Under the pieces are notes generated by a model. That model had not been told where the DNA came from. It saw only the letters and a list, made by a program, of their open reading frames with translations, and did no database searches. The translations under genes and the position numbers were made by a program. Source: a virus. Taken from it: a stretch of DNA of 64,000 nt. Positions 46,880 to 64,000 of this stretch are shown here, piece after piece. Every line of letters begins with the position of its first letter. Position 1 is the stretch's first letter. The stretch lies in the IMG/VR virus record IMGVR_UViG_3300045988_128133; one strand, given 5' to 3'.

Positions 46880-47550
46880 TAGTCCAGATATATAGCTGAG
46901 TTATGGATGCGATTTGGGCAGTGGGGGATATCCTCGAATGCCCAGCTTAAGCCGTATTTGTAGCTCATGGCTATCTTCAATGTAGTGAAGAGACTCCGTA
47001 TCTGAGGCTGAGCCGCGCCATCAAGACGCATACGGAAGATATGCCTCCACTCCCGGAGGTTAGCAGTCATAGCAATGGTTGTGGCTGTGCAGTTAGGGAG
47101 AAGACCGCGGGCTTCTTCAGGGGGCAGTCCTTCTTCACTAATCAGCTCAGCATAAGTGTACACCAGAGATAGGCACTTACCTTTGAACAGCCTGACAACT
47201 GTGGAAGGGGTTGAAGGGTCTCCAAAGAACTGAGGCTTAACCAGTTGAATAATTCCCTTCTTGTTGTAGTTCACGTACCTCTGAGACTCCATAGAGAAGG
47301 CGCAGTGGCGGTGACGTACCAGCTGGTGAGTTACACTCCTGTCCGTAGTTAGAACGGCAGAGATATTGATGTGTTCCAGTACGCTTTCATGTCCCCTATG
47401 GAGAATTTTAGACAGGAAAGCTACCGGGTCTCCTTTAGGTTCGCTTTTGTAGCAGGTGCGTCCGGCTTCTTCTGCCATAGATATGGCCTCAGAAACAGTT
47501 TCCTTACTAAGGGGGAGTCTTACCTGCTGGTCAATCCATTCGATGTCCAT
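46879..47550 (-). CDS. thyX: FAD-dependent thymidylate synthase ThyX
   Basis: ThyX signature RHRHCAFSMES (RHR-x7-S) and HESVLEH. Confidence 0.7.
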   Translation of the reverse strand: MDIEWIDQQVRLPLSKETVSEAISMAEEAGRTCYKSEPKGDPVAFLSKILHRGHESVLEHINISAVLTTDRSVTHQLVRHRHCAFSMESQRYVNYNKKGIIQLVKPQFFGDPSTPSTVVRLFKGKCLSLVYTYAELISEEGLPPEEARGLLPNCTATTIAMTANLREWRHIFRMRLDGAAQPQIRSLFTTLKIAMSYKYGLSWAFEDIPHCPNRIHNSAIYLD

Positions 47551-47562
47551 TGTTGTCTGTGT

Positions 47563-47880
47563 TTAAGAGTTCTTTAATTCATTTTCCATTCTTCTCAATG
47601 CTGTTCTGGATAAGAGTTCTTTAACTCTTTCCTCAGCATCTTCAATGCTGGTGTAAGTCCAACCGTAAGTTCCCCATTCTTCAGGGCTTGGCAAGTATTC
47701 ATCCCCAGCTTTAGTACCAGTGAAGTCATTGTCTTTTGTTCTGGTTCGGACAACGACCACTTCATACCTCCGGGTCTTCCCTTCGGGGTGGGTTTGTGAA
47801 TAAAGGGCTACGTGTTTTTCCCTCCTTATCAGAGTACATGTGAAGGGTTTGCGGATGTATTCGTCAGGAATCTTTTTCAT
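47563..47880 (-). CDS. hypothetical protein
   Basis: 105 aa. Confidence 0.35.
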   Translation of the reverse strand: MKKIPDEYIRKPFTCTLIRREKHVALYSQTHPEGKTRRYEVVVVRTRTKDNDFTGTKAGDEYLPSPEEWGTYGWTYTSIEDAEERVKELLSRTALRRMENELKNS

Positions 47881-49852: not shown

Positions 49853-49853
49853 G

Positions 49854-50090
49854 TTAATTCAAGTTTTGAGGATTTCTTAAAATAGTACCGGGGCGTGGTA
49901 TAGCCATCCGTTCCACGGCCAGCTGGACTTCCTCCCGCACAATGGATTTAATACCCCGGATGCCTGTGTTATAGAACGCCAGTCCGATATAGTGGTCCAT
50001 ATTCATGGGGATTCCTTTCTTACTGGCCGCCTTATACCACAGTGGGATATGCTTTCGGAGGTATTCCCGGATTGATGCTTCGTCTTTCAT
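49854..50090 (-). CDS. hypothetical small protein
   Basis: 78 aa. Confidence 0.35.
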   Translation of the reverse strand: MKDEASIREYLRKHIPLWYKAASKKGIPMNMDHYIGLAFYNTGIRGIKSIVREEVQLAVERMAIPRPGTILRNPQNLN

Positions 50091-50092
50091 GA

Positions 50093-50659
50093 TTACCAGG
50101 TGGTCATAACAGACACATTATGTCCCTGCCAGTGGTGATATTTAACCGCCCGGCCCTGCTCATCCCGCTCTATCACGGATATATGGGTTCCATGGGTGTT
50201 GGTTAGCATATCCAAATCGGAGACCTTGAGTTTATCGAACCCCTTGATGCAGGTGCCACCGACAAAGATAAGGCATTGAGTATAAACATCATCCACTTTT
50301 GTGGGACGTTCGGGGGAGTCGCAGGATGAGAGGCATACCACGGCAATCAGACCCGCCACGAGGGCCAGAACCAGTGTGAGAATCCTATGGGTTAAATGCT
50401 TCATATATTTTCGTTGTCTTCTCCGTTTGAGTTTAAGCTGTTTCTTAATTCTTTTCCGATTGTTCTTTACCAGACAACGTATGTTGTCGGGCAGAGGTTT
50501 AAGGGAAGAGCGCATCCTTTCCAGTTCATAGAAAAACAGGAGGACATACCCGCAGGTAGCGCATACTATTTGTGGATTGGAACCATCAGTAACCTGATAG
50601 GGGCCTCCGCAAACAGGGCATACCGGAGTATTAGGCGAGGATGATTTTGGACTTGGCAT
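50093..50659 (-). CDS. Zn-ribbon / basic / single-TM / extracytoplasmic-domain protein
   Basis: CPVCG...CATCG ribbon, a K/R-rich stretch, one TM, then a lipobox-like LSSCDS. This architecture resembles anti-sigma or superinfection-exclusion proteins. Confidence 0.4.
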   Translation of the reverse strand: MPSPKSSSPNTPVCPVCGGPYQVTDGSNPQIVCATCGYVLLFFYELERMRSSLKPLPDNIRCLVKNNRKRIKKQLKLKRRRQRKYMKHLTHRILTLVLALVAGLIAVVCLSSCDSPERPTKVDDVYTQCLIFVGGTCIKGFDKLKVSDLDMLTNTHGTHISVIERDEQGRAVKYHHWQGHNVSVMTTW

Positions 50660-51224
50660 CTTCTACTTGCTGTTGCAGAACTTCTTTACTGATGAAGGAG
50701 TATTTGGAAAGCCTCAACAGCTTCATGCTTACGACGTTGGACAGTACGGTGAAATACCTGAACGCGTTAATCTTTCCTTCACCCTCACCCACGAGGTCAG
50801 GCTTGTTCAGGGTGGTGTAGGAAATGAGCATATGCACTGCCATGACCATGATAATGGCACGAACCATTGTGTTCGTATCAGTGTACATAGCGCATGCCTG
50901 TCCCGCATTCTCAATCTCCTGCGTGAACATGATAGAATCCCGGAGGTTGGACACCAGTTCAATAGCCTTCTCCAGCATGAACTTGACACCATGAGTTGTG
51001 GGAAGTTCTATACCTGGGAAAATAGAAGCCGCATGTTCCCCAATCTCCGTAGCCTTTTCAGCCACGGCTTCCGCGGATGCATCGGGTGCCAGACCGAAGG
51101 TGGGAATGGATTCCCAGGCCAGTTCCATTTCCTCTTTGAGCTTAATGGATTCCGGTTCCTTCAACAGGGCGGCCACTGCTTCTTCAACTGCGTCGAGCTT
51201 GATTTCTTTAGTAGATTCGTTCAT
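50631..51224 (-). CDS. acidic hypothetical protein (start moved to ATG 51224 downstream of internal promoter)
   Basis: The ORF-track start at 51278 is TTG. A TTGACA-N16-TATCAT promoter at 51251-51278 precedes ATG 51224. Confidence 0.35.
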   Translation of the reverse strand: MNESTKEIKLDAVEEAVAALLKEPESIKLKEEMELAWESIPTFGLAPDASAEAVAEKATEIGEHAASIFPGIELPTTHGVKFMLEKAIELVSNLRDSIMFTQEIENAGQACAMYTDTNTMVRAIIMVMAVHMLISYTTLNKPDLVGEGEGKINAFRYFTVLSNVVSMKLLRLSKYSFISKEVLQQQVEDAKSKIILA

Positions 51225-51250
51225 TTGTGTAGGTTGGTTAATGGGTTTAA

Positions 51251-51278
51251 ATGATACCGTGGGTTCCGTGGATGTCAA
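51251..51278 (-). promoter_or_regulatory. sigma70-like promoter TTGACA-N16-TATCAT embedded in the 3' end of the upstream gene
   Basis: The spacer is tccacggaacccacgg, that is, two CCACGG motifs. Confidence 0.4.
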
Positions 51279-51757
51279 TGAAAATCATCGAACATTTTAG
51301 GGACACAGGAAACTGCATTACAGATGGAAAACCGGGGGATAGATGCACCCGAAGGGGCCTCAATCTCCAGCTGGTTCTCAACCTGGGAGAGCAGAGCTAA
51401 AACATCCTTGCAGAATATCTGCTCCTTCCCCGATTCAATATTTTTACAGCGGTACTGGAGAGTGTCTGCGATAAAGGATGAAATTACAACGTAGTCCCTA
51501 CATGGGCACGAATCCAGCGAACAATATCCAATGTATCGAACTACATCCCCCACTTGCAGTTCGCGGTCGGGATAATAAAACATCGGCGTAAGGTCTAGAG
51601 GATTAGCCAGAATCGGTTTCGTGTTCGAGGCCTTCAACAGCTTAATCAGGTAGTTCCGGTCCTGTGCAAGAACCACTCCGGGGGTTATCCCATCAAAGAG
51701 AACGTGGTCTCCGATTACTGGATGTCTTAACTGGTCGAGAAGTATGTTAATGGTCAT
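51275..51757 (-). CDS. hypothetical protein
   Basis: 160 aa. Confidence 0.4.
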   Translation of the reverse strand: MTINILLDQLRHPVIGDHVLFDGITPGVVLAQDRNYLIKLLKASNTKPILANPLDLTPMFYYPDRELQVGDVVRYIGYCSLDSCPCRDYVVISSFIADTLQYRCKNIESGKEQIFCKDVLALLSQVENQLEIEAPSGASIPRFSICNAVSCVPKMFDDFH

Positions 51758-51761
51758 TGTT

Positions 51762-51903
51762 TCTGATTGGTTTTATAATTTCTTTCGTCGTCAAAGCGTT
51801 TCCATTCTTCCTTGTACTGGTGGTAGGCATCCCACAGGATGATGAAGACGCACAGAGATAGGATGAAGGAAAAAATGATACCAAGATATAACAGAATTTG
51901 CAT
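51762..51903 (-). CDS. small single-TM protein (46 aa), not in ORF track
   Basis: MQILLYLGIIFSFILSLCVFIILWDAYHQ... Its stop overlaps the downstream ATG as ATGA. Confidence 0.3.
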
Positions 51904-51937
51904 AGAACTTATTAGTAGCGTTATATGAGGGTTCTAG

Positions 51938-52504
51938 TTAGGCGCGGGTGTTGTCCTGAAGAGAACCACCAAGGATGAGACTTTCTATATCCAGCGGGTG
52001 TGCCGGGTCGAGGCTGATAGCTAAAGCGTCCACGTTAAAATCTACCAACGTTTCCCCGTAGGGTTCAATGTCCGCGGGCCTGTATTTAACCTCACGGGTC
52101 AGGGCCGGGCGAGCCTTGAATAGTGCGGAGAAGAGGTTCGTAGAGTAGCGTACTGCATTGAAGCCCATTTGATATGGCGTGTAGAAGAGTGTCGCATAGT
52201 AGTGTTCTTGTCCGCGCTTAATTATGGGAGTGTTTAGCCGCATAATCTGAACACATCTCCGGTCATGGTCGTTGCGGTAGGTGGCCGTCAGGGTTACTTG
52301 CTTTTTCTGCCACCAGGCGGGACCAAGCCCGAAGCCTTCCAGTTCAATGACATTTGGAGTCACTGGCTTCCGGGGAATAACTATCTGGGTCGGCTCATCT
52401 ACCATAAACAGAAGACCTTTCGGAAGTCCTTCGTAAACCGTCGGGTTCTTCTTCACGTAGTCAGCGAGAAGCCAAATCTGCTGGGCGAGTGCGATTGATT
52501 TCAT
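51938..52504 (-). CDS. hypothetical protein
   Basis: 188 aa. Confidence 0.4.
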   Translation of the reverse strand: MKSIALAQQIWLLADYVKKNPTVYEGLPKGLLFMVDEPTQIVIPRKPVTPNVIELEGFGLGPAWWQKKQVTLTATYRNDHDRRCVQIMRLNTPIIKRGQEHYYATLFYTPYQMGFNAVRYSTNLFSALFKARPALTREVKYRPADIEPYGETLVDFNVDALAISLDPAHPLDIESLILGGSLQDNTRA

Positions 52505-52541
52505 TATCTTATTGATTAGTAGGGTTATATGAGGGTTCTAG

Positions 52542-52889
52542 TTAGAGAATAGGTGGGTTAATTCCGAAGTCCTTCATCCAGCGGGCCAGTACTGCGGCCT
52601 GGCTGATATGTTTACGCATGCGCTTCCTGCATATGTTGGTTGCAATCTCAATCAGGAAGGAGGGAAGGAACCAAACCAAGATGAGAGCGCACCATACATG
52701 GAAACCCAGGTCAAACTTTCCAACCACACCCGCAACAAGCATGGCGGTGGAGAGAAGGAATCCCACAACAGTGGTTGCAATCGTAGATTTTTCGAGCAAG
52801 TCCCATGCGGTGTGGTACCTATCCGCAAGGCCCATGTGCTTCAAATACTGGGCACGGGTATTAAGCACGGCTTCCTTAAACGTGTTCAT
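52542..52889 (-). CDS. small membrane protein (2-3 TM)
   Basis: Hydrophobic segments. Confidence 0.4.
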   Translation of the reverse strand: MNTFKEAVLNTRAQYLKHMGLADRYHTAWDLLEKSTIATTVVGFLLSTAMLVAGVVGKFDLGFHVWCALILVWFLPSFLIEIATNICRKRMRKHISQAAVLARWMKDFGINPPIL

Positions 52890-52912
52890 AGCGTTCTATG
52901 AGGGTTCTAGAA

Positions 52913-53521
52913 TTAACGGAAAACTACCTTAATTTCAGTCACATCTGAATCACCCTTCTTCTCAACCACCGTGCTAAACTTCACCATGCAGGGGAGGAAC
53001 ATCTTTTCGGCCATGCGGCGAGCCTTAATAGAGTTCAGCTTCTGAGCCTGTGGTTCGTCGGCGTTCAGTACCCTGAATTTCATGTAGGTCAGGCTTTGGT
53101 CTACCATGAAGTCAACGGCTTGAATCTCATTTGCAATTCTGAATGCCACATCCTGCCAGTTCTGGGTTATCACCTCCATGAAGGTACGTGCCCACTGCAC
53201 GGCATCCTTGAGTGACAGGGAAGCCACTTCCAAAATCGTCAGCACCTGCCCATTCCACTTCATCTTGTGAATACGGGTAATGTACGAAGTAAGGGAAATG
53301 CGTTGCAGTTCAACGGCATAAGGTCTCCGATACGGTTTGATGAATACCGAGCCTTCACCATTCCAAAGTTCCGGCTTCTCAATGCGTACAGACTCTTCAT
53401 CCTTATGTAGGAGCAGGGTGTTAGGCTGAATTTTATTTACATAGGTGGTCAATCTAATCCATTCAGGGCGAGAAAGTTCTTCACGGCTCTTGCATTCAGT
53501 ATTTACGAAAAAGGCTTTCAT
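52913..53521 (-). CDS. hypothetical protein
   Basis: 202 aa. Confidence 0.4.
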   Translation of the reverse strand: MKAFFVNTECKSREELSRPEWIRLTTYVNKIQPNTLLLHKDEESVRIEKPELWNGEGSVFIKPYRRPYAVELQRISLTSYITRIHKMKWNGQVLTILEVASLSLKDAVQWARTFMEVITQNWQDVAFRIANEIQAVDFMVDQSLTYMKFRVLNADEPQAQKLNSIKARRMAEKMFLPCMVKFSTVVEKKGDSDVTEIKVVFR

Positions 53522-53623
53522 GATTTATAGCGTTCTATGAGGTTTCTAGTATTTTGGTTGATGTTAATTTAGGTTAATTATCTTTTTTCTTTTGGATTGT
53601 TAGGGTAGCCTAATTTGTTAGTT

Positions 53624-54700
53624 CTATCTAAGGGAAGAAGTATCAAGCACCGGGTGCACTGGGTTAGTCTCCGAGTTGACAAGATAGGAAGAATGGGAAG
53701 ACATGAGGACGTGAAGCCGTTGATGCACCGCCTGATAGTGGCGGTGAGCATCTAACCATTCCGTCAAGAGACTGCGTAGGTACCGCTCACTTTTAGCACT
53801 AGTCAAAGCCGCTTCCACCTTTTCAAGCTCGCTTTTAATACGGTTCTCCTGCTCTTTCAAGACTTGCGCCAATTCCGCTTGCGCCCCTTCATCCAGTCGG
53901 AAGCTGACGGAACCACGGCATACATTGAAGGCACTTGCAGGGAAAGAAATAAGCTCAATAGCTTCCGCATCCGTTGAACAGTCTTCGCACCTTACCCAGA
54001 CTTGCACGGCTAATCTCTCCATATCCACAAGAACATCAAGGCCATGTTTGTCATGCAGATTGCGAAGGGCCTCAATTTCGCCGGACGCACGGTTGAATAA
54101 ATGTTCAGCAAGGTAGGGTGTGAAGCGATACCCTGCTAATGCCTTCAAATCAAGGCGTAATGCGGTCAGGAGATACTGGGAAACTGTCAAAGCTATCCGG
54201 CGATTGATTAGATAAGACTGTGTGCGCTTGATATCATGGAGAATAGACCACGCCGCATTGTGACATGCGGCCCCTTCATCAGGAGAGAGCAGGGGAAGAA
54301 AAGTACTCATGGCTCCAGCGCAAGCATTATCCACCTGCTTTAAATGGTTGTCTATTTGGTCATACCCGTTCACGCTCAAGAAGTTGAACAGGTTTGCATG
54401 GGGAGAAGCGGCTAAAGTTTTTCCGTTGGTAATATGAACTCCGTACGTTGGCATGAAATGGGAGGTTGCCAGCGTTACGCCGTTTCTCCGGCGCATTTGC
54501 GCCCCTTCTGCGTCATACGTCCAATTATAATCTGCATAGTTTATCCCATTGAACAGGAAAGCTTTCTGGATATCGTCCGGTTCCGGGTTGTCCAAATATT
54601 TCACAGGTCGAAGGCAATCCAAATCACCGCAGAATTGAATGAGAGAAAGGGTGTTGTCCTTGAAACTCTTGACAAGTTTAGTTGCGGAAATGTTTGTCAT
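53624..54700 (-). CDS. hypothetical protein
   Basis: 358 aa. Confidence 0.4.
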   Translation of the reverse strand: MTNISATKLVKSFKDNTLSLIQFCGDLDCLRPVKYLDNPEPDDIQKAFLFNGINYADYNWTYDAEGAQMRRRNGVTLATSHFMPTYGVHITNGKTLAASPHANLFNFLSVNGYDQIDNHLKQVDNACAGAMSTFLPLLSPDEGAACHNAAWSILHDIKRTQSYLINRRIALTVSQYLLTALRLDLKALAGYRFTPYLAEHLFNRASGEIEALRNLHDKHGLDVLVDMERLAVQVWVRCEDCSTDAEAIELISFPASAFNVCRGSVSFRLDEGAQAELAQVLKEQENRIKSELEKVEAALTSAKSERYLRSLLTEWLDAHRHYQAVHQRLHVLMSSHSSYLVNSETNPVHPVLDTSSLR

Positions 54701-54735
54701 ACTTAAATAATTGCTTAGGGTTAATGAGTTAGGAA

Positions 54736-55536
54736 TTAGCGGTTGTACTTAGGAAGGGCGGCGTTGTAGTCCGTGCGCTTGTAGTGATATGTTTTCGGTG
54801 ACGTAATGGACGCAATAAGGGCATCCTGCTTCACCAGTTCACGCTTTACTTTAATTGTAGATTGCACAATCTTTCGCAAGATGCTTTCTTTCTGCATGTT
54901 GTGGAGAGATGTAAGAGCACTTTCCGCCTTAGATTCCAGATATTCCACAGTTGCGTTTAGCTTGTCAATCACGGGTTGCATGTCATCTACGCTAACAATG
55001 CGCCCAGTTTCCGGACTCACTAACACCTTAAAATCCAACGGGAAAGAAATATGTTCCTCCAATCCTAGGCTTCCGTGGAATCGGAGGCAATGCAAATCGT
55101 AATTGCTGAAATCTACATAGCCTTTAATTGTACGGAGAGTCTCTTTTTTCCGGGCATCATCCAAAGAGTCGGAGAAGCAAGCCTTTATGGCATTGTCCAA
55201 CCGGGCGTTGTAGACCTTACCCGCAAAACTGGGAAGCTTAGCAATTAGCCGCCTGATGAAGTCAATGGAGATATTGGCGGCGTAATAATAATTAAAAAGT
55301 TTCACTCGTGTAACATTCAAATCATCCAAAAAGGTACGGATTGATGCACCCAGTTCCCGCCAGTCATCTTTACCGAGGCCTTCCCCCGGTTCACCGTTGA
55401 ACTGGTTCCAGACTTCTTCCCGAACCGTTTTAATAGCGGCATCACTTTTCGTCATGTATGCAATCGTTTCGTTATGTGTGGTATATTTCATTTTCTTATT
55501 CTTTCTATTGGTTTTGTTAATATCCTTAAATATCAA
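54736..55536 (-). CDS. hypothetical protein
   Basis: 266 aa. Confidence 0.4.
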   Translation of the reverse strand: MIFKDINKTNRKNKKMKYTTHNETIAYMTKSDAAIKTVREEVWNQFNGEPGEGLGKDDWRELGASIRTFLDDLNVTRVKLFNYYYAANISIDFIRRLIAKLPSFAGKVYNARLDNAIKACFSDSLDDARKKETLRTIKGYVDFSNYDLHCLRFHGSLGLEEHISFPLDFKVLVSPETGRIVSVDDMQPVIDKLNATVEYLESKAESALTSLHNMQKESILRKIVQSTIKVKRELVKQDALIASITSPKTYHYKRTDYNAALPKYNR

Positions 55537-56084
55537 TCAATTATGCGTAACACCCTTGCTTCTGCGTCATCCGTACTGGGTGCCATATAACGCCCGCAAC
55601 CGTCAAAAGTTTCCGTTGCGGATGCGTCCATGAAATTAGTATGGACGTAATAGCTAAGATAAGGGCGGCCGTGCTTCGCATAATTCCACCCTACGGGAGC
55701 ATATTCATCATTCCAACGCATATCTGCAACACGCTTAAAACCTGCGTTTTTATATATTTTCGATAAATGGGGCGTATCGAGGCACATCAGCCACCCGGCA
55801 CCGTGAGCAACCGCATCACAGACTAGCCCGCTTCCGAGTATGATACTTTTCGGAGACTTAATGAGAGATACTAGCTCAAGATTTTCCGTGATTGCATAAA
55901 CTGCAACCGGGTTTGACGGTGTGCCTATCAAGTGGCAGTGCGCTTTCTTTTGGACATACCAGCTTTCTTCATGCACATCCACCGCGCCGCGCGTTCCTTC
56001 GTCAATCTTATTACGCAATTTATGCGCGGCGGTCAGCCATTCATTAAGGTCTTCGGTTTCGGCGTTGTAGCAATATCTATTCAT
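55533..56084 (-). CDS. possible GNAT-fold acetyltransferase
   Basis: ILGSGLVCDAVAHGAGW...YKNAGFKRV is a weak match to the acetyl-CoA-binding motif A. Confidence 0.3.
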   Translation of the reverse strand: MNRYCYNAETEDLNEWLTAAHKLRNKIDEGTRGAVDVHEESWYVQKKAHCHLIGTPSNPVAVYAITENLELVSLIKSPKSIILGSGLVCDAVAHGAGWLMCLDTPHLSKIYKNAGFKRVADMRWNDEYAPVGWNYAKHGRPYLSYYVHTNFMDASATETFDGCGRYMAPSTDDAEARVLRIID

Positions 56085-56149
56085 AATCTATTGTCTTTCT
56101 ATTGTTCGGTTGTTTTGTTCACCGCCCCTTATTGGCGGCTGATGTGGCT

Positions 56150-56177
56150 ATTTTAGCGGATTTGCGGATGTTGTCAA
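56150..56177 (-). promoter_or_regulatory. early promoter TTGACA-N16-TAAAAT (cassette A)
   Basis: Minus-strand read. TTTTGTCATACA lies at 56192-56203, an AT-rich UP-like tract, and a conserved leader hairpin CCGCC/GGCGG. Confidence 0.55.
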
Positions 56178-56185
56178 ATTATTTT

Positions 56186-56576
56186 TTAGACTGTATGACA
56201 AAACGGAGATTTATTTAGTAGTTTTGCTATCTGTATTTTTGCAATTCTGTGAGAAGGAAACACCCTAGAACATTTTCTTTTATATGTTGATAAGGTGCAA
56301 GGTGTTAGACAATTTGCCCGAACGTAATAAATTGTTGAATCTTCTTCTCCACCGTAAGGACGTACTAAACCTATTTCAATATATCCGGCTGAAATAAGTT
56401 CTTCAATGGGTCTTTTTGTTGCAATAGCCAGCCAGCTATACTTCTCCAACTGTACCGCATCTTTAATAGGTACGGAAGAAGCCTTTTCATCCGATACGGG
56501 AATCAATTCACTATTTACTACCTTATACCGGAACACCAAATCGTCAGCCAAAGGTAAAAATTTTATTCTTTTCATA
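56186..56576 (-). CDS. hypothetical early protein (ATG 56576)
   Basis: TTGTCATACAA at 56590-56602 abuts its start region. Confidence 0.35.
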
Positions 56577-56601
56577 TTATTTTTCAAGGTTGTATGACAA
56601 A

Positions 56602-57150
56602 TTACAAATAATTAACATGAGAGAGATACTTACTCCAATTCAGATTTTCCGGCTCTACTTCCTGCCCTTTCACCTGACGGAAGCGCATAAAGAGCTCCAC
56701 CTTTTTTCCTTTGGTATCATATCCGGGTGCGCTCCACTCTTCCAGATATTCTTCCCCCTCCCCCGCGTGGTGAATACTACCCGGAAAAAATCGGTTGGAA
56801 AGGGTCATTTGACGGGTGGCGCAATAGACGTGCCCTTGATAGACATACCCGCCGAACTGTTTTCGGAGTCCGTGAAAATCAACAGGGCATTGACCTTGCA
56901 CAAAGTAAAAATTATTGTTAACTACCAACCCTAAACGGAGGGAAACTGCACCGAGAGCACGGGCAATCAAACCTTCCAAAGATTTGACGGAATCGGAGGC
57001 GGTCAAATAGACTACCCATGCTTGGCCATGCCTCCAACAAATATGTTCCCGTTGGAGTGCGTTCTTAACACGTTTTTTAGCGTTGCGCCCTTCGGCACCT
57101 TGTGCATTGAGGCAGTCAAATAAAATTACGATTGTTTTTGCAGTTTTCAT
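56602..57150 (-). CDS. hypothetical early protein
   Basis: 182 aa. Confidence 0.35.
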   Translation of the reverse strand: MKTAKTIVILFDCLNAQGAEGRNAKKRVKNALQREHICWRHGQAWVVYLTASDSVKSLEGLIARALGAVSLRLGLVVNNNFYFVQGQCPVDFHGLRKQFGGYVYQGHVYCATRQMTLSNRFFPGSIHHAGEGEEYLEEWSAPGYDTKGKKVELFMRFRQVKGQEVEPENLNWSKYLSHVNYL

Positions 57151-57204
57151 ATTTAGTTTTTCTATTTGGTTTGTTCACCACCCTTGTGGGTGGCTGATGA
57201 AGTT

Positions 57205-57232
57205 AATCTAGCAGATTTTGCTACCTTGTCAA
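57205..57232 (-). promoter_or_regulatory. early promoter TTGACA-N16-TAGATT (cassette B)
   Basis: Leader hairpin is CCACCC-ACAA-GGGTGG. Confidence 0.5.
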
Positions 57233-57266
57233 ATTATTTTTTACTTTGTATGACAAAATGGATAAA

Positions 57267-57587
57267 TTATTGATTGATAATGGCTTGTGCGTAGTCCATA
57301 ATATTGCTTACGTGTACAACCCGGAAGCGTTCCTGTTCCGCAATCAGGGCAATGTCTTTTTGCTGACGGGAAGTTGTCTGGGAGTATTTGCGGGAAGAAA
57401 GATAAAGGATTTTATTTGCTCTATCTACTGCCGCAATTATGGTGGCATATGAGTACAAGAGCGGCCCCTCAAATTTCATTGAGCGAAGGCTTCCATAGTT
57501 GGTGCGGCGCAATGGTGCTTTCCCGCTGGTTGCGGTTCCGTCCAGATACGGGTACATAAGTTTTTCAACGTAGTTTCGGGTATTCAT
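57267..57587 (-). CDS. hypothetical early protein
   Basis: 106 aa. Confidence 0.35.
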   Translation of the reverse strand: MNTRNYVEKLMYPYLDGTATSGKAPLRRTNYGSLRSMKFEGPLLYSYATIIAAVDRANKILYLSSRKYSQTTSRQQKDIALIAEQERFRVVHVSNIMDYAQAIINQ

Positions 57588-57643
57588 ATTCTGTTTTCTT
57601 TCTATTTGATTTGTTTGCCGTCCTATCGGTGGCTGATGAAGCT

Positions 57644-57671
57644 AGTTTATCGGATTTGATGATGTTGTCAA
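57644..57671 (-). promoter_or_regulatory. early promoter TTGACA-N16-TAAACT (cassette C)
   Basis: TTTTGTCATACAA lies at 57699-57711. Confidence 0.5.
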
Positions 57672-57717
57672 CTATTTTATTTAAAATTTTTCATCTTTGT
57701 ATGACAAAAGTTGAAAC

Positions 57718-57951
57718 CTATTTATTTTCAGTGCGTTTCACGTTTGTAAATATTAGGCAGGTTAAGGGGCCGCTGGTAGGGCATATGCCTGATAAAACCC
57801 ATTCACCGGGAAATTTCCGCTTGTCAATTCTTTTTTCTCTTTTTTGCGGTGTATCTGATTTCGGCCCTAGCGTCATCACCCTTTCCGGCGTTCCCCTCAT
57901 TCTGCCTATCCGAAATGTTTCGGTGGTTATCTCGTCCATATTAAGCGGCAT
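57718..57951 (-). CDS. possible small basic protein in 228-nt gap
   Basis: 77-aa ORF that overlaps the upstream stop by 11 nt. Composition is only moderately coding-like. Confidence 0.2.
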   Translation of the reverse strand: MPLNMDEITTETFRIGRMRGTPERVMTLGPKSDTPQKREKRIDKRKFPGEWVLSGICPTSGPLTCLIFTNVKRTENK

Positions 57952-58264
57952 TCATTCCGGCATCTTCCAGCATCAAGCAAAGCGGGTCAGAAATGTGCAC
58001 CCGTGAAACTTTCCAATCGGCTTCATTTCGGCGGTACTCGTCAATCGTCATTTCCCGGTGCGGTACGTTTTTGAGCAGGCCCCGCTTTTTTGCGATAATG
58101 GTAAGAGTTGCACCGCATTTTTCCGCTAGGTTAGTAAGATAGACTAGTTCCGTTGCGGCATTTTTTGATAGTTGCAGGGTATATGGTTCAACCTGCCTCA
58201 CATTAGCGGCTAGATTTTTAATCATCACCCGTTCATAAGGTTTGAGTTCGGCAATGGTATTCAT
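57941..58264 (-). CDS. hypothetical early protein
   Basis: 107 aa. No promoter of its own, so probably co-transcribed with the 58289 gene. Confidence 0.35.
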   Translation of the reverse strand: MNTIAELKPYERVMIKNLAANVRQVEPYTLQLSKNAATELVYLTNLAEKCGATLTIIAKKRGLLKNVPHREMTIDEYRRNEADWKVSRVHISDPLCLMLEDAGMNAA

Positions 58265-58288
58265 GATTGATTGTTAGTAGGTTAAAGA

Positions 58289-58528
58289 TTAGTCAAAAAG
58301 CAGTTCAAAGCCGTCTTCATACTTGCTCAATTCCGCATCCCATGAATCCGCAACTTCTTTGATAAGTGATTCAATGGCTTCCGGGTTTTCGGTAATTACG
58401 TAGATAATGCAAGTGTTGGTGGTGCGGAAACTTTGCCCCGTGATGCGGTTGATATGCTGGTGTATGTTTTGCTGATGCGCCTTTTCCCAGATTTCGCTTG
58501 CAATTATTGCCATAGTTTCTTCTCTCAT
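58289..58528 (-). CDS. small acidic early protein
   Basis: 79 aa, acidic. Confidence 0.35.
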   Translation of the reverse strand: MREETMAIIASEIWEKAHQQNIHQHINRITGQSFRTTNTCIIYVITENPEAIESLIKEVADSWDAELSKYEDGFELLFD

Positions 58529-58607
58529 AATCTATTGTCTTTCTATTTGGTTTGTTCACCGCCCCTTGTGGGTGGCTGATACCGCTATCGCGGCGGGTTA
58601 TGCGGCT

Positions 58608-58635
58608 ATTTTATCGGGTGTTCTAATGTTGTCAA
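58608..58635 (-). promoter_or_regulatory. early promoter TTGACA-N16-TAAAAT (cassette D)
   Basis: Consensus -35 and -10 elements, with TTTTGTCATACAA at 58664-58676. Confidence 0.55.
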
Positions 58636-58690
58636 CTATTTTATTTAAAATTTTTCGAGGTTGTATGACAAAATCGTAAATTGTTGATTA

Positions 58691-59185
58691 TTAGTTAGAT
58701 AGTTTGAAGTGAGGGCGGGCAATACTGGTTGGCAGGTAAATATCATCATGGGTGGCAAAGAGCACACGCCCATTGCGGATGACCGCAAACGCCGTCCACC
58801 CGTCATTGCGGGCAAGTACTGATGTCAGGGCGTTAAGATAGGTTCCTATCGTCCTGCGTCCGTCCGGTTTGTGTGCACCAACGGGCGGCTCGCTTTTATC
58901 GCACCAGAAATAGACGGTGCAGTTATGAAGTGAAGTAGATAATGGGGCCGGAATGATGCCCGTGTATCTATAGCGGCTCTCCACATACCAAGGTGTACAA
59001 GGTGCCGGGCCACCAAAGGCAGGGGAGTTTTCGAACCGGGAGTCTGGGGCGGTAGGGGAGACAAGCAAAAAATGACGGGAAAACTCGTCAGCTTGTGCCC
59101 GTTCTTCGGCGGTCGTATCTCCAAAGTCTCCTGTACGGAGGTAATTGACAAGGCGGGTAGGAATATATGCAATATCTGTGTTCAT
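58691..59185 (-). CDS. hypothetical early protein
   Basis: 164 aa. Confidence 0.35.
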   Translation of the reverse strand: MNTDIAYIPTRLVNYLRTGDFGDTTAEERAQADEFSRHFLLVSPTAPDSRFENSPAFGGPAPCTPWYVESRYRYTGIIPAPLSTSLHNCTVYFWCDKSEPPVGAHKPDGRRTIGTYLNALTSVLARNDGWTAFAVIRNGRVLFATHDDIYLPTSIARPHFKLSN

Positions 59186-59233
59186 ATGTTTATTTTGGTT
59201 GCGGGGGAGGTACCGCCCCCCGGTGATTGATAT

Positions 59234-59575
59234 TTAGTCATTAACGCCGAAGGCCAAACGGGCGGCGGCTCCCATGACGGAGGTATTAAGCTCATGCCGG
59301 GTTGCTACGATATTATTGCCCTGACGGGTGGCCACATCCGTGAAATAGAGATTGCGGGCCTTGCGGGCATCCTTATCATTGCGGATATCATGGCCCAGAT
59401 AGTTTTCCAGTAGGTCTTTATCCTCATTCCAACATGCCGCAACGTCGATATTATCGATGCAGGGCCTAATGGATTCTGTGGGCACCGGGGATGCAAAGAC
59501 TGTCCGGCTTCCGTGGGTTACAAACATGTGTAAGGTTCCGGCGTTATCTTCAATCACAATGTAGTTCATATTCAT
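59234..59575 (-). CDS. hypothetical early protein
   Basis: 113 aa. Confidence 0.35.
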   Translation of the reverse strand: MNMNYIVIEDNAGTLHMFVTHGSRTVFASPVPTESIRPCIDNIDVAACWNEDKDLLENYLGHDIRNDKDARKARNLYFTDVATRQGNNIVATRHELNTSVMGAAARLAFGVND

Positions 59576-59637
59576 AATATATTGTCTTTTTCTATTTTGG
59601 TTTGTTATTCACCGCCTTATTGGCGGTTGATGCGGCT

Positions 59638-59665
59638 ATTTTATCGGGTATGATGACGTTGTCAA
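59638..59665 (-). promoter_or_regulatory. early promoter TTGACA-N16-TAAAAT (cassette E)
   Basis: Leader hairpin is ACCGCC-AATAA-GGCGGT. Confidence 0.55.
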
Positions 59666-59731
59666 CTATTTTTTTTTTAAAATTTTTTCAGCTTGTATGA
59701 CAAAAGTTGCAATGCCCTCACTACGTGTGAC

Positions 59732-60313
59732 TTATCGCACGGGAAAAACTTCGCATCCTACCACAACCACCCGGCAATATTCCCGGCCGTCATTCTTGGC
59801 TTCCCGGATTGTGGTGACTAGCCGGGTTAAATCGTCCGGGTTTTTGAGGGTGAGGGCAAGAGCCGAGCAAGTGACGGTACCAAGTTCCATTGCTTCAAAA
59901 TTGGATTTAATGGCGGCGAGTACCCGGGTGCGGGTCTCTTTGTTTTTGATAAGACTAGCCATGACGATTACTTTTTTCCCGGCATACTTTGCAGACAGTT
60001 CGGCGGGCGTGGGGGAAATGGCACTAAAGGCATGGCGGCCCGCATTCCTCATATTTTCCCACAAGGGGCGGCGGCAATAAACTAGTTCTGTCCCCGGCGT
60101 TGCGGCCGTTGCAGTCCACCACTTGCGGGCATCGATGATATCTACGGGCATTTTCCAGCTCTTCACCTCATGCAAATTGTTGAGCATGTGTGGCAAGTAT
60201 TCAGCCGATACCGGGCCAGCAAATCTGATATCACCTAGATTATCAACCACAACTAAACGGAGTTCACCCGTCTTTGTTTCGTACACTAGCACATGGAGTT
60301 CTTTCTTATTCAT
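59732..60313 (-). CDS. hypothetical early protein
   Basis: 193 aa. Its N-terminus is duplicated in the adjacent pseudogene. Confidence 0.4.
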   Translation of the reverse strand: MNKKELHVLVYETKTGELRLVVVDNLGDIRFAGPVSAEYLPHMLNNLHEVKSWKMPVDIIDARKWWTATAATPGTELVYCRRPLWENMRNAGRHAFSAISPTPAELSAKYAGKKVIVMASLIKNKETRTRVLAAIKSNFEAMELGTVTCSALALTLKNPDDLTRLVTTIREAKNDGREYCRVVVVGCEVFPVR

Positions 60314-60326
60314 ATCTTATATCTTT

Positions 60327-60522
60327 CTATCGTTTGGTTTGATTTGTTTTGTGGTAGTTATTAAGCGTTTTCGGTATCGTTCAAATTACGTAGGAGGGTG
60401 AGCAAGGATTCTGTGGGTACAATAGGGGCGATTGCCTGATTCCCCTTATCGTCCATGACTATCATACGGAGTTCACCCGTCCGGGTTTCGTAAATATGTG
60501 CGGTCACTTTGGCCATGTTCAT
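60327..60522 (-). pseudogene. frameshifted partial duplicate of the 5' end of gene 59732..60313
   Basis: MNMAKVTAHIYETR, then a +1 shift, then TGELRMIVMDDKGNQAIAPIVPTESLLTLLRNLND aligns with HVLVYETKTGELRLVVVDNLGD...LNNLHE. DNA shares the 15-mer ACGGGTGAACTCCGT, and the shift comes from a 1-nt insertion. Confidence 0.45.
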
Positions 60523-60572
60523 ATTCTATTGTTTTTCTATCGTTTAGCCGCCAATGAGGGTGACGGTTACAA

Positions 60573-60602
60573 GTATTATTTAGTATTTTCGGAGGTTGTC
60601 AA
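60573..60602 (-). promoter_or_regulatory. early promoter TTGACA-N18-TAATAC (cassette F, variant leader)
   Basis: Leader shares the 33-nt block ggttacaagtattatttagtattttcggaggtt with the 61017 region. Confidence 0.35.
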
Positions 60603-60626
60603 TAAGTTTTTTCGGAGTATGACAAA

Positions 60627-61019
60627 TTAAAGCAAACGGTCATCGATGACGCTAACCCATTGATTATTTGCCGCATCATAGCGGGGTGCAACAAAGAGAG
60701 CGGAATCAACCCCTAGCGGCATCCATGCAATGCGCTCATGCATGGGCAGATTGTTGAGGAGACTCGCCGGGGGTGTGCCGTCAGGGGAAATGAGCATCAC
60801 GCCATTTTCGGAGGCCCGTACAACAGTCACACCCGGATAATTCCGGGAAACGTTCGGCCATGCGTACCGGGTCATGAGGTCTAAAATCAGCAAGGCATCT
60901 TTAGCAGTCATGCCCGTATACCAACGTACCCGGTCATCTACCGTTGACCACATAATAAGAGTAGATTCTTGCAGTTCGTAGCTTATATGCAGGTTTTCAA
61001 TAATTCCTTTCAGCTTCAT
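60627..61019 (-). CDS. hypothetical early protein
   Basis: 130 aa. Its upstream cassette lacks TTGACA, so it is probably co-transcribed with the 61093 gene. Confidence 0.35.
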   Translation of the reverse strand: MKLKGIIENLHISYELQESTLIMWSTVDDRVRWYTGMTAKDALLILDLMTRYAWPNVSRNYPGVTVVRASENGVMLISPDGTPPASLLNNLPMHERIAWMPLGVDSALFVAPRYDAANNQWVSVIDDRLL

Positions 61020-61092
61020 AAGTTATTGTCTTTCTATTGTTTGGCCTTCCTTTCGGCGGTGGTTACAAGTATTATTTAGTATTTTCGGAGGT

Positions 61093-61323
61093 TTAGGCAC
61101 GGAGCCGGACTTTCCAATCTTCAACGGTGGCGGGCAAGCCGAAAGCCGGGAAGCGGGTGAAGTAGTGCTCTTCACCGCAACGAGCCACAAGGTAATAGTC
61201 AGCTTTAAACCCATTGGCAAGCGCAATGTCCTCAAGGGTTAGGCCGTCCGTATCTCCGTATTCCAAATAACAAAGGGCCCATTCAGGAATTGCGGCGATT
61301 TCGTATTCTTCCAGTTCGTTCAT
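61093..61323 (-). CDS. small acidic early protein
   Basis: 76 aa. First gene of the array. Confidence 0.35.
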   Translation of the reverse strand: MNELEEYEIAAIPEWALCYLEYGDTDGLTLEDIALANGFKADYYLVARCGEEHYFTRFPAFGLPATVEDWKVRLRA

Positions 61324-61379
61324 ATCTATTATCTTTCTATTGTTTGGTTTAACCTCCCTTGTGGGCGGTTGATGTGCTC

Positions 61380-61407
61380 ATTTTACAAGAGAGTAGGGTA
61401 CTGTCAA
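61380..61407 (-). promoter_or_regulatory. early promoter TTGACA-N16-TAAAAT (cassette G)
   Basis: Here the TTTTGTCATACA element (61476-61487) is in inverted orientation. Confidence 0.5.
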
Positions 61408-61529
61408 TAGATTTATTTGATAATTGTTGATACTCATTGGCGAAAGCGGTGTAACTCGTTGAACCTGTGGCAATTATGATTTTGTCATACATCTCCGCTT
61501 CGCTATGATGCGGGCCGTACATCTCCGCT

Positions 61530-61742
61530 CCCACGGTTCCCACGGTTCCCACGGTTCCCACGGTTCCCACGGTCGCCATATGTGCGTGCGCGCGTGTGCG
61601 TGCATATGTATATAGTGGTTGCCGTGGGTTCCGTGGAGTCCGTGGAGTGTATGGGTAGCATGGGAACCGTGGAGTGTATGGGTAGCATGGGAACCGTGGA
61701 GTCAATGGGAACCGTGGAGTCAATGGGAACCGTGGGTTCCGG
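61530..61742. repeat. large imperfect inverted-repeat cluster of CCACGG-type units (candidate ori/pac/partition site)
   Basis: 5x tandem CCCACGGTT (61530-61574), then an alternating Pu/Py tract (61577-61614), then inverted units GGAACCGTGGAGT: 2x a 27-bp unit plus 2x an 18-bp unit (61621-61742). Confidence 0.85.
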
Positions 61743-61810
61743 CCGCGCCTCATGTATGGTAACTCCCTGATGCTAAGTCTGTTACATTTCTTATACAACT
61801 GTATAACTTT

Positions 61811-61845
61811 TAGTTTAGGTTTCTTAATAGTTTAGGTTTCTTAAT
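61811..61845. repeat. direct repeat AGTTTAGGTTTCTTAAT x2; nearby AAAATTTATAC x3 (61847, 61879, 61971)
   Basis: Seen directly in the sequence. Confidence 0.7.
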
Positions 61846-62321
61846 TAAAAATTTATACCGTTCGCATACCTTCACATAAAATTTTATACGAAGTGCATGC
61901 GAAGGGTGCAAATTAGAGCACGGAAATCACGGAAACAGTGTAAAATAGTCCAATATCAGACCATCCCACATAAAAATTTATACGCCTGTATAGGAAATGT
62001 GCCAACCTTTTACAATTTTGTAAAATGAAGCATGCTTCGGATAATTTAAGACCTTCATCCTCAACGTATTCCCCTTATTCTGACAGGATTAGTAGGATTA
62101 AAAAGATGAGGCCAGTTCTCAAATAACATTCCTACCAATTAGGCATTATATGTATTATGCGAAGTATGGAACTGTAACCCATTGATTCTATGGTACTTAT
62201 AGCAAACAGGGTGCCAATAGGAAACAGGGGAGAGTGGAAGCATGCACCAATTGCGTGAAGGGGCAGGCTACCCTATACCTTATTGAGTATCTGACGGTTA
62301 GGGGAAGCGGAAGCCGGAAAG

Positions 62322-62364
62322 CCACGGATTCCACGGATGCCGGGAGGCCACGGATGCCGGGAGG
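62322..62364. repeat. tandem CCACGGATGCCGGGAGG x2 preceded by CCACGGATT
   Basis: gccacggattccacggatgccgggaggccacggatgccgggagg. Confidence 0.8.
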
Positions 62365-62612
62365 CCCTAATATGTTAGGCGCAACTAACTTTTGGAAAAA
62401 ATTGGCGGCATGGGGAAATTTTTTCGGCCAAAAAAGTCCAAATACCACCACGGTTTCCGGGGCTTCGGGGCAACACATGCGCTATTGTAAAAGATTGACA
62501 CAAATTTTTCGGCAGGGGTGCGGGGGTAGGGGTACCCTTCTGGGCAGACAGGGGAGAGGCTTGTCAAGAGAAATCGACGCGCGGCTGGGCTTCATTTTCA
62601 TCTATTTTATGC

Positions 62613-62640
62613 TTGACAGAAAAAAGATTTCTGCTATAAA
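62613..62640 (+). promoter_or_regulatory. sigma70-like promoter TTGACA-N16-TATAAA in non-coding region
   Basis: gcttgacagaaaaaagatttctgctataaa. Confidence 0.45.
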
Positions 62641-62646
62641 AGCCTC

Positions 62647-62827
62647 CGGTTCTCGAAGAGGTCTGCAAGGGCTCACTCCCCAACTGTAGACCCACTCTTT
62701 ACTCAGGTAGCCGCAACAGATAATGTCGAGTAAAACTGTTGGCCGGGCAGACCTGGTTTCGAGTTCGAGAACCCAACTTCCATTGGATTCCCCGGAGGTC
62801 GCGGCAACGGCTTCCGGGGTTTTTGTT
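62647..62827 (+). ncRNA. candidate ~180-nt non-coding transcript (promoter-to-terminator unit)
   Basis: Bounded by the 62613 promoter and the 62790 terminator. No convincing ORF inside. Confidence 0.3.
62790..62827 (+). terminator. rho-independent terminator
   Basis: CCCCGGAGG...CTTCCGGGG hairpin followed by TTTTTGTT. Confidence 0.5.
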
Positions 62828-63860
62828 GTCAAGAGAAATCGACGCGCGGCGAGGGTTCCAAGAGGCATATTAAATCCTACTAGTTTGGTAGGGATTAAGA
62901 GGGACCAGATTAGAGTTACTGAAACCCCATGGAGCAGTCCATGTCAAGCAAAATCGACATGCGGCCATTACCATGCACAGGGCACTGTCAGATAAACAGC
63001 AACATCTACAGCGTCGCAACATGAAAGAACCCCTCCGAAGTACCGTGAAGGCGATACCTGGAGGGGCTGAAAGATACGACTAAACCAGTAGAAAGGAAGG
63101 CCCGTGCGGAGAACCTTAGCCAGGGAAGGGTTTCTGAACTCGCGTCGCGTAGCGGTGTCAGCCGTTGTCTCCGTGGGGACCGGGGGCAATTTATCACGGG
63201 GAGGAAACCCTGTCAAGCAAAAACGGTTTACGTGGGAGCAATGGCTTCCGAGGGTACCGGGGGTACATGTCAAGCAAAAACGACGCGCGGCGGGTACCCA
63301 GGCCCACAGTAGGGAGTTCCATCATACAGGAGGTAGCTCTTGCTCTTATAGCTTCCACCCAAGGTTGCCCATTCCTGACATGTTACCCCACCACTCCACG
63401 CGCTTGCACAGTGTGTTGGCTATCGTTAACCACTGAAGGAGGTCAAGGCCGTTTTAGCCGGGGGTAACTTTGTTCTACCTTATTAGGCCTACTTACAATG
63501 TTACCCATACCTAAAAGAGAGGTTTGAGAGCGGGATGGACAATCACAAGGGGGAGGGTAGGTAAGCTCGTGGAAGGTAGGGGTAACATGACAAGAATGGG
63601 ACTGTGCGTAGCCACCCGTGATGCAGGTGTTCATGCGTAGGTACGCGCGGGGGTGAGCAGGAGGGGGAAAGAGGAGGAACCCGCTTGACAGAGGCTGTGA
63701 CTGGCCTAGAACAGTGGAACAACGTAACTTTGGTAGTGGGTTAACTCCCTTATCATCAAGAAGTTACTACAGAGTGGAACAGAGTGGAACAAGATGAGAA
63801 TGTGACAAATTTTCACTGACTATCAACGAGTTGCAGGGTTAGGAACAACGAACAGCTTTA

Positions 63861-63902
63861 CGCGCGCGGTGTATATGTGTGTATGTGTGTATGTGCGTAT
63901 AT
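63861..63902. repeat. alternating purine-pyrimidine (GT/GC) Z-DNA-prone tract
   Basis: cgcgcgcggtgtatatgtgtgtatgtgtgtatgtgcgtatat. Resembles the tract at 61577-61614. Confidence 0.7.
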
Positions 63903-64000
63903 TTTTTATTACTCTCTCACACATTAAATAAATTATATATATTCATTGTTATAGGGGATGTAACTCATTAACACTCAATAAAAATTTGTACCAATCTTAC

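Follow-up and report, generated by a model that had tools for sequence, protein, structure and literature searches.

The stretch of viral DNA analyzed here (IMG/VR record IMGVR_UViG_3300045988_128133; 64,000 nt, hereafter the window) represents 64 kb of the ~72-kb genome of an uncultivated phage from the human gut. Its right end carries a long segment free of open reading frames (ORFs), within which a 24-nt direct repeat, the 24-mer, recurs. This whole segment is a control region without coding sequence that separates the early genes, directed leftward, from the replication genes, directed rightward. It is real, conserved within the phage family and built from several parts, and although it is unusually elaborate, most of these parts are of known kinds; the 24-mer stands apart from them. 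Our preferred explanation of the region combines a replication origin module, a gene for a small RNA (sRNA) termed RNA1, and 24-mers acting as transcription signals, and we assign this explanation as a whole a probability of about 0.38.

The 71,872-nt contig L129, ENA ERZ1689595 NODE_1, proved to be identical to the window, with no mismatch over 5767 nt, and the right border of the region was read on it. The ORF-free stretch runs from 61324 to the window-equivalent position 64156, 156 bp beyond the window, and its ~2.83 kb exceed the ~2.3 kb that a first-pass annotation of this DNA had given. The first rightward gene begins 157 nt beyond the window end and is followed by the gene for a 954-aa primase-helicase. 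That annotation had seen no convincing ORF, which holds true: no credible ORF was identified past 61323, all three stop codons are present in all six frames, and the longest plus-strand ORFs are disrupted in the relative L005 by indels of 1 nt and 53 nt. As every stop codon occurs in every frame, recoding of a stop codon was rejected as the cause of the missing ORFs. The minus-strand ORF at 61349-61798 had been dismissed as a repeat artefact; it does run through 9-mer arrays and also includes the promoter of the first leftward gene, but the palindromic nature of the array at 61529-61741 had been overlooked. Searches for transfer RNA, transfer-messenger RNA and the families of Rfam 15 at gathering score returned no match in the window and seven relatives, and neither similar DNA nor a similar terminase was found among the deposited phage genomes searched.

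Exact-pattern scans yielded 19 viral contigs and 76 metagenome stretches, and about 60 of all loci fetched were true relatives (individual ones are referred to by L numbers), almost all from human-gut assemblies and many of them 67-72 kb in length. The relatives share a common order of elements: the last leftward gene is followed by tandem-repeat arrays flanking a core that is AT-rich or alternates purines with pyrimidines, a conserved island (Block A), a repeat cluster, a second island (Block B), one to five 24-mers separated by non-coding modules, an AT-rich repeat region and the primase-helicase gene. Conservation across every lineage is limited to Block A, Block B and the 24-mer; the modules between the 24-mers are gained and lost among relatives, and the left-hand arrays are wholly different between lineages. 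More distant relatives (L122-L126), which were reached via the exonuclease gene, carry different repeats and no 24-mer in the origin-proximal DNA. Among the proteins, conservation between lineages amounts to 93% for the large terminase and 86% for a neighboring 253-aa protein, while early and replication proteins are 23-49% identical. The earlier view of the region as an origin, regulatory hub or non-coding RNA locus rather than decayed coding sequence is borne out by this family-conserved non-coding layout, by the probable sRNA gene and by the origin-like module. The absence of the repeats from close relatives had been named as a point that would refute it; the 24-mer is present across the family (~60 relatives).

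The replication origin is most likely the module at 63.7-64.1 kb, as judged mainly from a pattern that recurs across lineages. To the right of four GGAACA copies (Table 1), the center of this module combines an AT-rich tract with an alternating purine-pyrimidine tract at 63860-63901. Located 2-150 nt beyond the window end are three opposed TGTTC(C/G) motifs, the CCCACGGAA unit in two copies and the first rightward gene's promoter. The primase-helicase, which has a VapE/D5-type helicase domain and a BT4734-type N-terminal domain, occurs as at least four alleles with 30-49% identity. Directly upstream of each allele, an AT-rich tract is enclosed by short opposed repeats, and the sequence of these repeats changes with the allele: GGAACA on the left and TGTTC(C/G) on the right in the lineage of the window (W), TAACAAC and GTTGTTA in the alleles of the L005 contig and of the relatives designated M-type, a GTACC-type repeat in L062, and GGGACAT in the more distant lineage L122. 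Over 62100-62990, 24-mers included, L005 matches the window at 97-100% identity; the primase-helicases of the two are 36% identical, and the DNA to the right of ~63600 is unrelated. Alleles are located at 4464-7328 in L008, 5785-8646 in L121, 2561-5410 in L066 and on the reverse strand of L062, and together with their own short repeats they are swapped between phages of near-identical neighboring DNA. We interpret this swapping as modular exchange of an origin along with its initiator. In L008, a relative with 97% identity, a ~70-bp TTGTTCC-repeat unit is duplicated 207 bp apart (3283-3355 and 3490-3562); the unit is single in L129, the genome of the window itself.

Origins of Staphylococcus aureus pathogenicity islands (SaPI) with self-loading primase-helicases consist of short opposed repeats around an AT-rich tract (PMC9371898). 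Like such SaPI/P4-type origins, the module at 63.7-64.1 kb has 5-7-nt opposed repeats on both sides of an AT-rich tract, at least two per side, and an adjoining primase-helicase gene with allele-specific repeats (PMC9371898). Unlike them, this putative origin is positioned upstream of the gene rather than downstream, and its center includes a GC-containing alternating purine-pyrimidine tract. The repeat cluster of the window itself is modest, with four plus three copies, and is stronger in relatives. The likeness concerns 63.7-64.1 kb and not the 24-mers. In such an origin, the primase-helicase would open the DNA at the GGAACA/TGTTCC repeats across the alternating purine-pyrimidine and AT-rich tracts.

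RNA1 is probably a small-RNA gene, as it combines a promoter of its own, an intrinsic terminator and a structure with compensatory changes. The genome contains ~20 sigma70-like promoters of the class (A-rich)TTGACA-N16-17-TAnnnT: one each ahead of small leftward genes (61407, 59665, 58635, 57671, 57232 and 56177), several in the plus-strand gene block, one before the first rightward gene, and one, at 62613, ahead of RNA1. The RNA1 terminator consists of a 12-bp GC-rich hairpin and a T-run (62790-62826), and the RNA1 segment folds better than 200 of 200 shuffled sequences (z = -3.2). In the divergent homologue of L062, the promoter hexamers (TTGACA-16-TACAGT) and the terminator are kept, four base pairs show compensatory changes, and a 28-nt insertion is confined to a loop. 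Matches to an RNA1 covariance model occur only in the W, L009/L091 and L062 lineages, and the structural support is moderate because there is only one truly divergent homologue. Host polymerase would transcribe RNA1 from the sigma70-like promoter and stop at the intrinsic terminator; as a type of RNA it is ordinary, an sRNA bounded by a terminator, and its sequence family is new. The first-pass annotation had missed its defining host-type promoter and terminator. At the equivalent place, M-type relatives carry a different sRNA candidate of ~150 nt with a promoter and a fold z-score of -6, whose terminator arms resemble, by eye, those of RNA1. In sliding-window analysis of the region, only RNA1 and the 9-mer palindrome stand out by fold z-score. 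A further conserved module, RNA-X, is preceded by a 24-mer in every lineage that carries it and is possibly a structured RNA; the indications are mixed, with ten pairs showing compensatory changes and one helix broken in L005/L088.

The 24-mer has the consensus TGTCAAG(A/C)(A/G)AAA(T/A)CGAC(G/A)(C/T)GCGGC, and its copies span 62562-63291, all on the plus strand. All five sites reported earlier are real; however, one is truncated, and as the near-identical relative L046 keeps a full 24-mer at this very position, the window is counted as carrying four full copies and one truncated copy. The start-to-start distances of 265, 115, 269 and 57 bp match the reported spacing of ~57-270 bp, and the inverted arms CATGTC-N10-GACATG of copy 3 were found as described. 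Allowing up to three mismatches, a 17-nt core of the 24-mer matches eight times in the window where 0.94 matches are expected, a number reached in none of 100 shuffles. A weight matrix built from 19 distinct family 24-mers (maximum 43 bits) assigns 34.5-41.7 bits to the four full copies and 13.1 bits to the truncated one, while the best other site in a ~71-kb composite of window and L008 scores 9.3. The distribution of scores is bimodal, and the composite holds no further copy. Conserved blocks (GTCAAG, AAA, CGAC and GCGGC) leave six tolerated positions. The only dyad universal to the 24-mers is GTC-N10-GAC, that is, 3 bp around a 10-nt loop; arms of up to 7 bp exist in some copies and show no upkeep by compensatory change. 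An apparent covariation after the 24-mer (ATG..CAT / ACG..CGT) was rejected as a helix, since all four combinations occur.

In all genomes examined, the 24-mers are co-oriented. The sequence upstream is unrelated from copy to copy, and the downstream sequences form a few classes; right after each copy, most relatives carry CATTCCACGGG, a sequence that includes the CCACGG core seen in the 9-mer arrays. Each of the conserved modules RNA1, beta, gamma and RNA-X is headed by a 24-mer, and in three lineages a 24-mer starts 2-3 nt after the T-run of the RNA1 terminator. In L043, the RNA1 module is absent and the junction lies inside a 24-mer. Conservation of the number and spacing of the repeats, which had been proposed as a check, was not observed, as relatives carry one to five copies spaced 57-326 bp apart. 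L013, L048 and L093 possess a single copy, extra copies are decaying in L005, and two near-perfect 24-mers 91 bp apart are kept in many M-type genomes. Several relatives (L010, L018, L020, L027 and others) carry zero to five TGTCGGT heptamers ahead of copy 1 and, 10 nt after copy 2, a stretch of 4-9 G residues; this length variation may reflect phase-variable spacing or assembly noise. A scan of bacterial genomes with the 24-mer for a clue to the host gave chance single matches only. A CRISPR array or solitary repeat units were rejected, as the 'spacers' between 24-mers measure 33-300 nt and are conserved between genomes, as opposed to the expected unique spacers of ~30-40 nt. Among the described elements tested, none corresponds to the 24-mer.

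With less than even confidence, we favor the 24-mer as a transcription signal that heads rightward non-coding units. The link to such units is suggested by co-orientation, by the position at the head of modules, by the junction with the RNA1 terminator and by a purine bias of the plus strand, which amounts to 0.56 between ~62.05 and 63.7 kb compared to 0.52 in the plus-strand gene block. In addition, no sigma70-like promoter is present between 62613 and the first rightward gene, which leaves the modules beyond the RNA1 terminator with no visible start signal apart from the 24-mers. The 24-mers would be specialized promoters or promoter-proximal factor sites that launch or control rightward non-coding transcription toward the origin, and the factor reading them would be conserved in the family, unlike the replication proteins. 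As a conserved, asymmetric and co-oriented element of ~20-25 bp, the 24-mer has the form of a promoter for a phage polymerase. Promoters of the T7 class comprise 23 bp, and phage N4 has three early promoters at one genome end. The 24-mers resemble these in being ~23 nt long, conserved, asymmetric, co-oriented and clustered, and in the arrangement of a terminator followed by the next element; they differ in that a cognate polymerase gene was not found here and in that they head non-coding modules only. They also lack the hairpin of N4 promoters, a 5-7-bp stem with a 3-nt loop, and in the absence of a short-loop hairpin an N4-type hairpin promoter was rejected. The crAss-like phage phi14:2, whose host does not use Shine-Dalgarno sites, produces abundant long non-coding RNAs from large intergenic regions (g004-g006) that are transcribed rightward at a high level, and has sigma70-like promoters as well (bioRxiv 10.1101/2020.03.07.982082). 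The phage studied here likewise has a large intergenic region beside replication genes and no Shine-Dalgarno sites; however, there is no sequence similarity, and the DFDxD virion polymerase signature is absent from this phage.

Several observations weigh against this role of the 24-mer. Pfam and PHROG searches of most ORFs of at least 100 aa identified no polymerase or sigma factor able to read a 24-nt promoter. The protein-coding genes are already served by the ~20 sigma70-like promoters, and none of them is directly preceded by a 24-mer. In neither orientation is the 24-mer laid out like a sigma70 promoter, in which -35 and -10 hexamers stand 16-18 nt apart. Over its first 10-14 nt it mirrors the -35 and upstream part of the RNA1 promoter, the first six nucleotides being the reverse complement of TTGACA; a sigma70 promoter was nevertheless rejected, as this TTGACA on the reverse strand is not followed by a -10 element and the forward strand carries neither hexamer. 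The downstream flanks share no common start sequence, a strong terminator lies between both 24-mers and the origin in M-type genomes, and RNA structure is only weakly supported in the modules besides RNA1. Finally, the invariance of the 24-mer parallels that of the terminase (93%), which would fit a packaging site equally well.

One candidate for such a polymerase was the orphan 3199-aa ORF at 34788-44387 (plus strand), which is confined to this phage family, is 51% identical between lineages and has hundreds of homologues in a search with the giant protein. It matched nothing in Pfam, PHROG or PDB, and the protein lacks DFDxD and T7-type motifs, its single DxDxD not being invariant. AlphaFold2 models of two segments were of low confidence (pLDDT, the predicted local distance difference test, 40-43) and nearly all helix. 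Based on the missing profile and PDB matches, the absent catalytic motifs and these helical low-confidence models, a virion RNA polymerase was rejected for this ORF. The lack of a polymerase match in an orphan protein is, however, no proof of absence. We keep, at long odds, the idea that the 24-mers are start signals of a phage-specific transcription system that current profiles miss. Such a system might involve the 3199-aa protein or a small unannotated factor redirecting host polymerase, and the 24-mers would then mark the heads of exchangeable non-coding RNA genes, arrayed like cassettes ahead of the origin.

Four other roles of the 24-mer were weighed. It is unlikely, if to a lesser degree than the remaining three, that the 24-mer is a DNA site for a conserved machine other than transcription, most plausibly a pac/cos-type site of the terminase, or else the site of a conserved DNA-binding protein that organizes the region. 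The element is asymmetric, ~23 bp long and very high in information, is found nowhere else in the genome, and suffices as a single copy in some relatives. It is invariant across lineages with early and replication proteins of 23-49% identity, the terminase and its 253-aa neighbor being conserved at 93% and 86%, and the decay of extra copies in L005 points the same way. The pac site of phage P22 is a single asymmetric site of 22 bp, which the 24-mer resembles in asymmetry, length, high specificity and the sufficiency of one copy. However, P22 pac is situated within the small-terminase gene, whereas the 24-mer occurs in one to five copies ~11 kb from the large terminase gene, and a small terminase was not identified in the ORF scans. 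A PDB similarity search gave no match from which to assign the terminase type. L129 breaks at about an unrelated 27-nt tandem repeat (x3.3; 11329-11416) within the ORF of an acidic repeat protein (11092-12282), suggesting a circular assembly, which is compatible with terminal redundancy. On the other hand, contig ends cluster in tandem-repeat arrays and not at the 24-mer; as this marks them as assembly breaks, they were rejected as physical genome ends. A DNA site of this kind also leaves unexplained the heading of modules, the terminator junction and the two near-perfect copies 91 bp apart kept across M-type genomes. Less probable still is a role in RNA, with the 24-mer serving as a processing or protein-binding site in a long rightward precursor that starts upstream of Block A. 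The strict co-orientation, the heading of each module and the purine-rich plus strand from ~62.05 kb onward would agree with such a precursor, as would a promoter-like site with operator palindromes at 62018-62045 and 24-mer-like sequences in the hairpin loop of RNA1 (62713-62738) and in the M-type sRNA candidate. Yet the only universal pairing is GTC/GAC, the longer arms lack compensatory upkeep, no conserved structure joins Block B to the 24-mer, copies 2-5 are located beyond the 12-bp GC-rich terminator, and a candidate nuclease was not found.

The label 'iteron-like' given to the repeats in the first-pass annotation does not hold, and it is very unlikely that the 24-mers are iterons of a replication origin bound by a phage initiator. 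They are direct repeats of iteron-like length located within 0.4-1.5 kb of a primase-helicase gene, and like the ~19-24-bp iterons of the lambda origin they show partial dyad symmetry and an A-rich center. Lambda iterons, however, are spaced tightly and regularly next to an AT-rich region and evolve in concert with the O protein; the 24-mers share none of these traits. Their spacing is irregular and out of helical phase (57-326 bp, with 91 or 148 bp in relatives), a single copy suffices in some genomes, and conserved modules including a complete sRNA gene separate the copies. The identical 24-mer accompanies primase-helicases that are 30-49% identical, so that there is no co-variation, while it is the other short repeats beside the primase-helicase gene that co-vary with the allele and flank an AT-rich tract. 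Lowest in our estimate ranks site-specific recombination, with the 24-mers as the sites that delimit mobile non-coding cassettes in an integron-like array. Module content and number do vary among relatives, junctions fall inside the 24-mer, and its partial inverted arms would suit such a site. Against this, searches of the scanned ORFs for a recombinase, and likewise for a sigma factor or ParB, found nothing, and homologous recombination between direct repeats of 24-35 nt already accounts for the deletions.

The remaining features of the region are located mainly to the left of the 24-mers (Table 1). The imperfect palindrome at 61529-61741, whose right arm (61617-61741) consists of inverted 9-, 18- and 27-mers containing CCGTGG, has a fold z-score of about -6.5 on either strand, and relatives carry other tandem arrays in its place. 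The further direct repeats listed in the first-pass annotation were all recovered, namely TAGTTTAGGTTTCTTAA twice, TAAAA(A/T)TTTATAC three times (61846, 61877 and 61971, with a fourth variant at 63979) and CCACGGATGCCGGGAGG twice. Two palindromes at 62008-62038 are 100% conserved in L005 within diverged flanks and overlap a weak rightward promoter-like site (TTGTAA-16-GATAAT, 62018-62045); the type TTTTACA-N4-TGTAAAA also occurs in M-type relatives. These palindromes are probably operators where transcription diverges, and the purine bias of the plus strand sets in close to them. Block B precedes the first 24-mer in all lineages examined, mostly by 14-53 nt and by ~190 nt in L062, and the two are found together in the same IMG/VR contigs; neither Block B alone nor Block B with the 24-mer showed a conserved RNA structure.

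Table 1. Features of the control region and related repeats in window coordinates.
Feature	Position	Strand	Remarks
Sigma70-like promoter of first leftward early gene (ATG 61323)	61380-61407	-	TTGACA-16-TAAAAT; conserved in L005
Imperfect palindrome	61529-61741	.	TCCCACGGT x5 (61529-61573), then alternating purine-pyrimidine core (61578-61614)
AT-rich stretch	61811-61983	.	17-mer TAGTTTAGGTTTCTTAA x2 (61811-61844); TAAAAATTTATAC x3 (61846, 61877, 61971)
Two operator-like palindromes	62008-62045	+	TTTTACA-N4-TGTAAAA (62008-62025); GAAGCATGCTTC (62027-62038)
Block A, conserved island	62118-62230	+	65-75% identity to all lineages; flanks unalignable
CCACGG-containing repeat cluster	62320-62366	.	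17-mer CCACGGATGCCGGGAGG x2 (62331-62366)
Block B, family-wide conserved island	62412-62546	+	ends in GGGGTACCCTTCTGGGCA
24-mer copy 1	62562-62585	+	
RNA1 promoter, sigma70-like	62613-62640	+	TTGACA-16-TATAAA; T-rich upstream element
RNA1 (probable sRNA gene), ~180 nt	62645-62826	+	terminator 62790-62819 + T-run
24-mer copy 2	62827-62850	+	abuts RNA1 terminator T-run; same junction kept in L005, L009, L062
24-mer copy 3	62942-62965	+	consensus form; 6-bp inverted arms, CATGTC-N10-GACATG
24-mer copy 4, truncated	63211-63227	+	first ~16 nt only
24-mer copy 5	63268-63291	+	
Module RNA-X, conserved non-coding	63330-63610	+	complementary segments GTTACCCC/GGGGTAAC
Origin-like module, left half and center	63715-64000	.	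GGAACA x4 (63716, 63776, 63786, 63842)
CCACGG/CCGTGG in genes	15837/15846, 22386/22395, 23105/23114, 26438/26447, 38575-38611, 11207/11216, 18074/18083, 51257/51266		

The hexamer CCACGG/CCGTGG is not restricted to the control region. It occurs 108 times in the whole window compared to ~31 expected, is denser in the late-gene block, and is often present as tandem pairs with 9-bp spacing inside protein-coding genes. It also forms arrays at 61529-61741 and 62322-62366, and its core recurs in Block B. From this distribution, the hexamer looks like a genome-wide binding site that ORFs would tolerate, nine being a multiple of three.

The plus-strand genes (34-45684) encode a PD-(D/E)XK exonuclease, a resolvase, the large terminase and structural proteins and include the orphan 3199-aa ORF; the minus-strand genes (45813-61323) comprise those for ThyX and an NAD-dependent ligase and many small genes. 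In the more distant relative L124, a gene for an IS605-family TnpB (OrfB_IS605 / Cas12f-like; 16233-17078) is inserted amid the structural genes. On the minus strand at 56177-61407, each small early gene has a near-consensus TTGACA-16-TAAAAT promoter followed by a conserved leader hairpin reading …CAACCGCC-AATAA-GGCGG…, and a box, AAACAATAGAAAGACAATA, is positioned directly ahead of the ATG. No GGAGG ribosome-binding site is present in the window, and Bacteroides-type TTTG/TAnnTTTG promoters are neither enriched nor found ahead of genes.

This phage family is frequent in metagenomes of the human gut, and annotation is lacking for most of its genes. The control region offers several handles on it, namely a putative origin whose repeats are allele-specific, a class of promoters, one or perhaps two small RNAs and the 24-mer, a signature of 43 bits that could serve as a family marker and as bait for the factor that reads it. 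If the 24-mer is a promoter, it would reveal an unrecognized transcription factor or polymerase; if it serves packaging, the family's genome ends would be defined by it; and if it is the start signal of an array of RNA-gene cassettes, this would be a new organization for phage regulatory RNAs. Either way, the analysis leaves known biology intact and usefully annotates a phage control region that is typical, if unusually elaborate.

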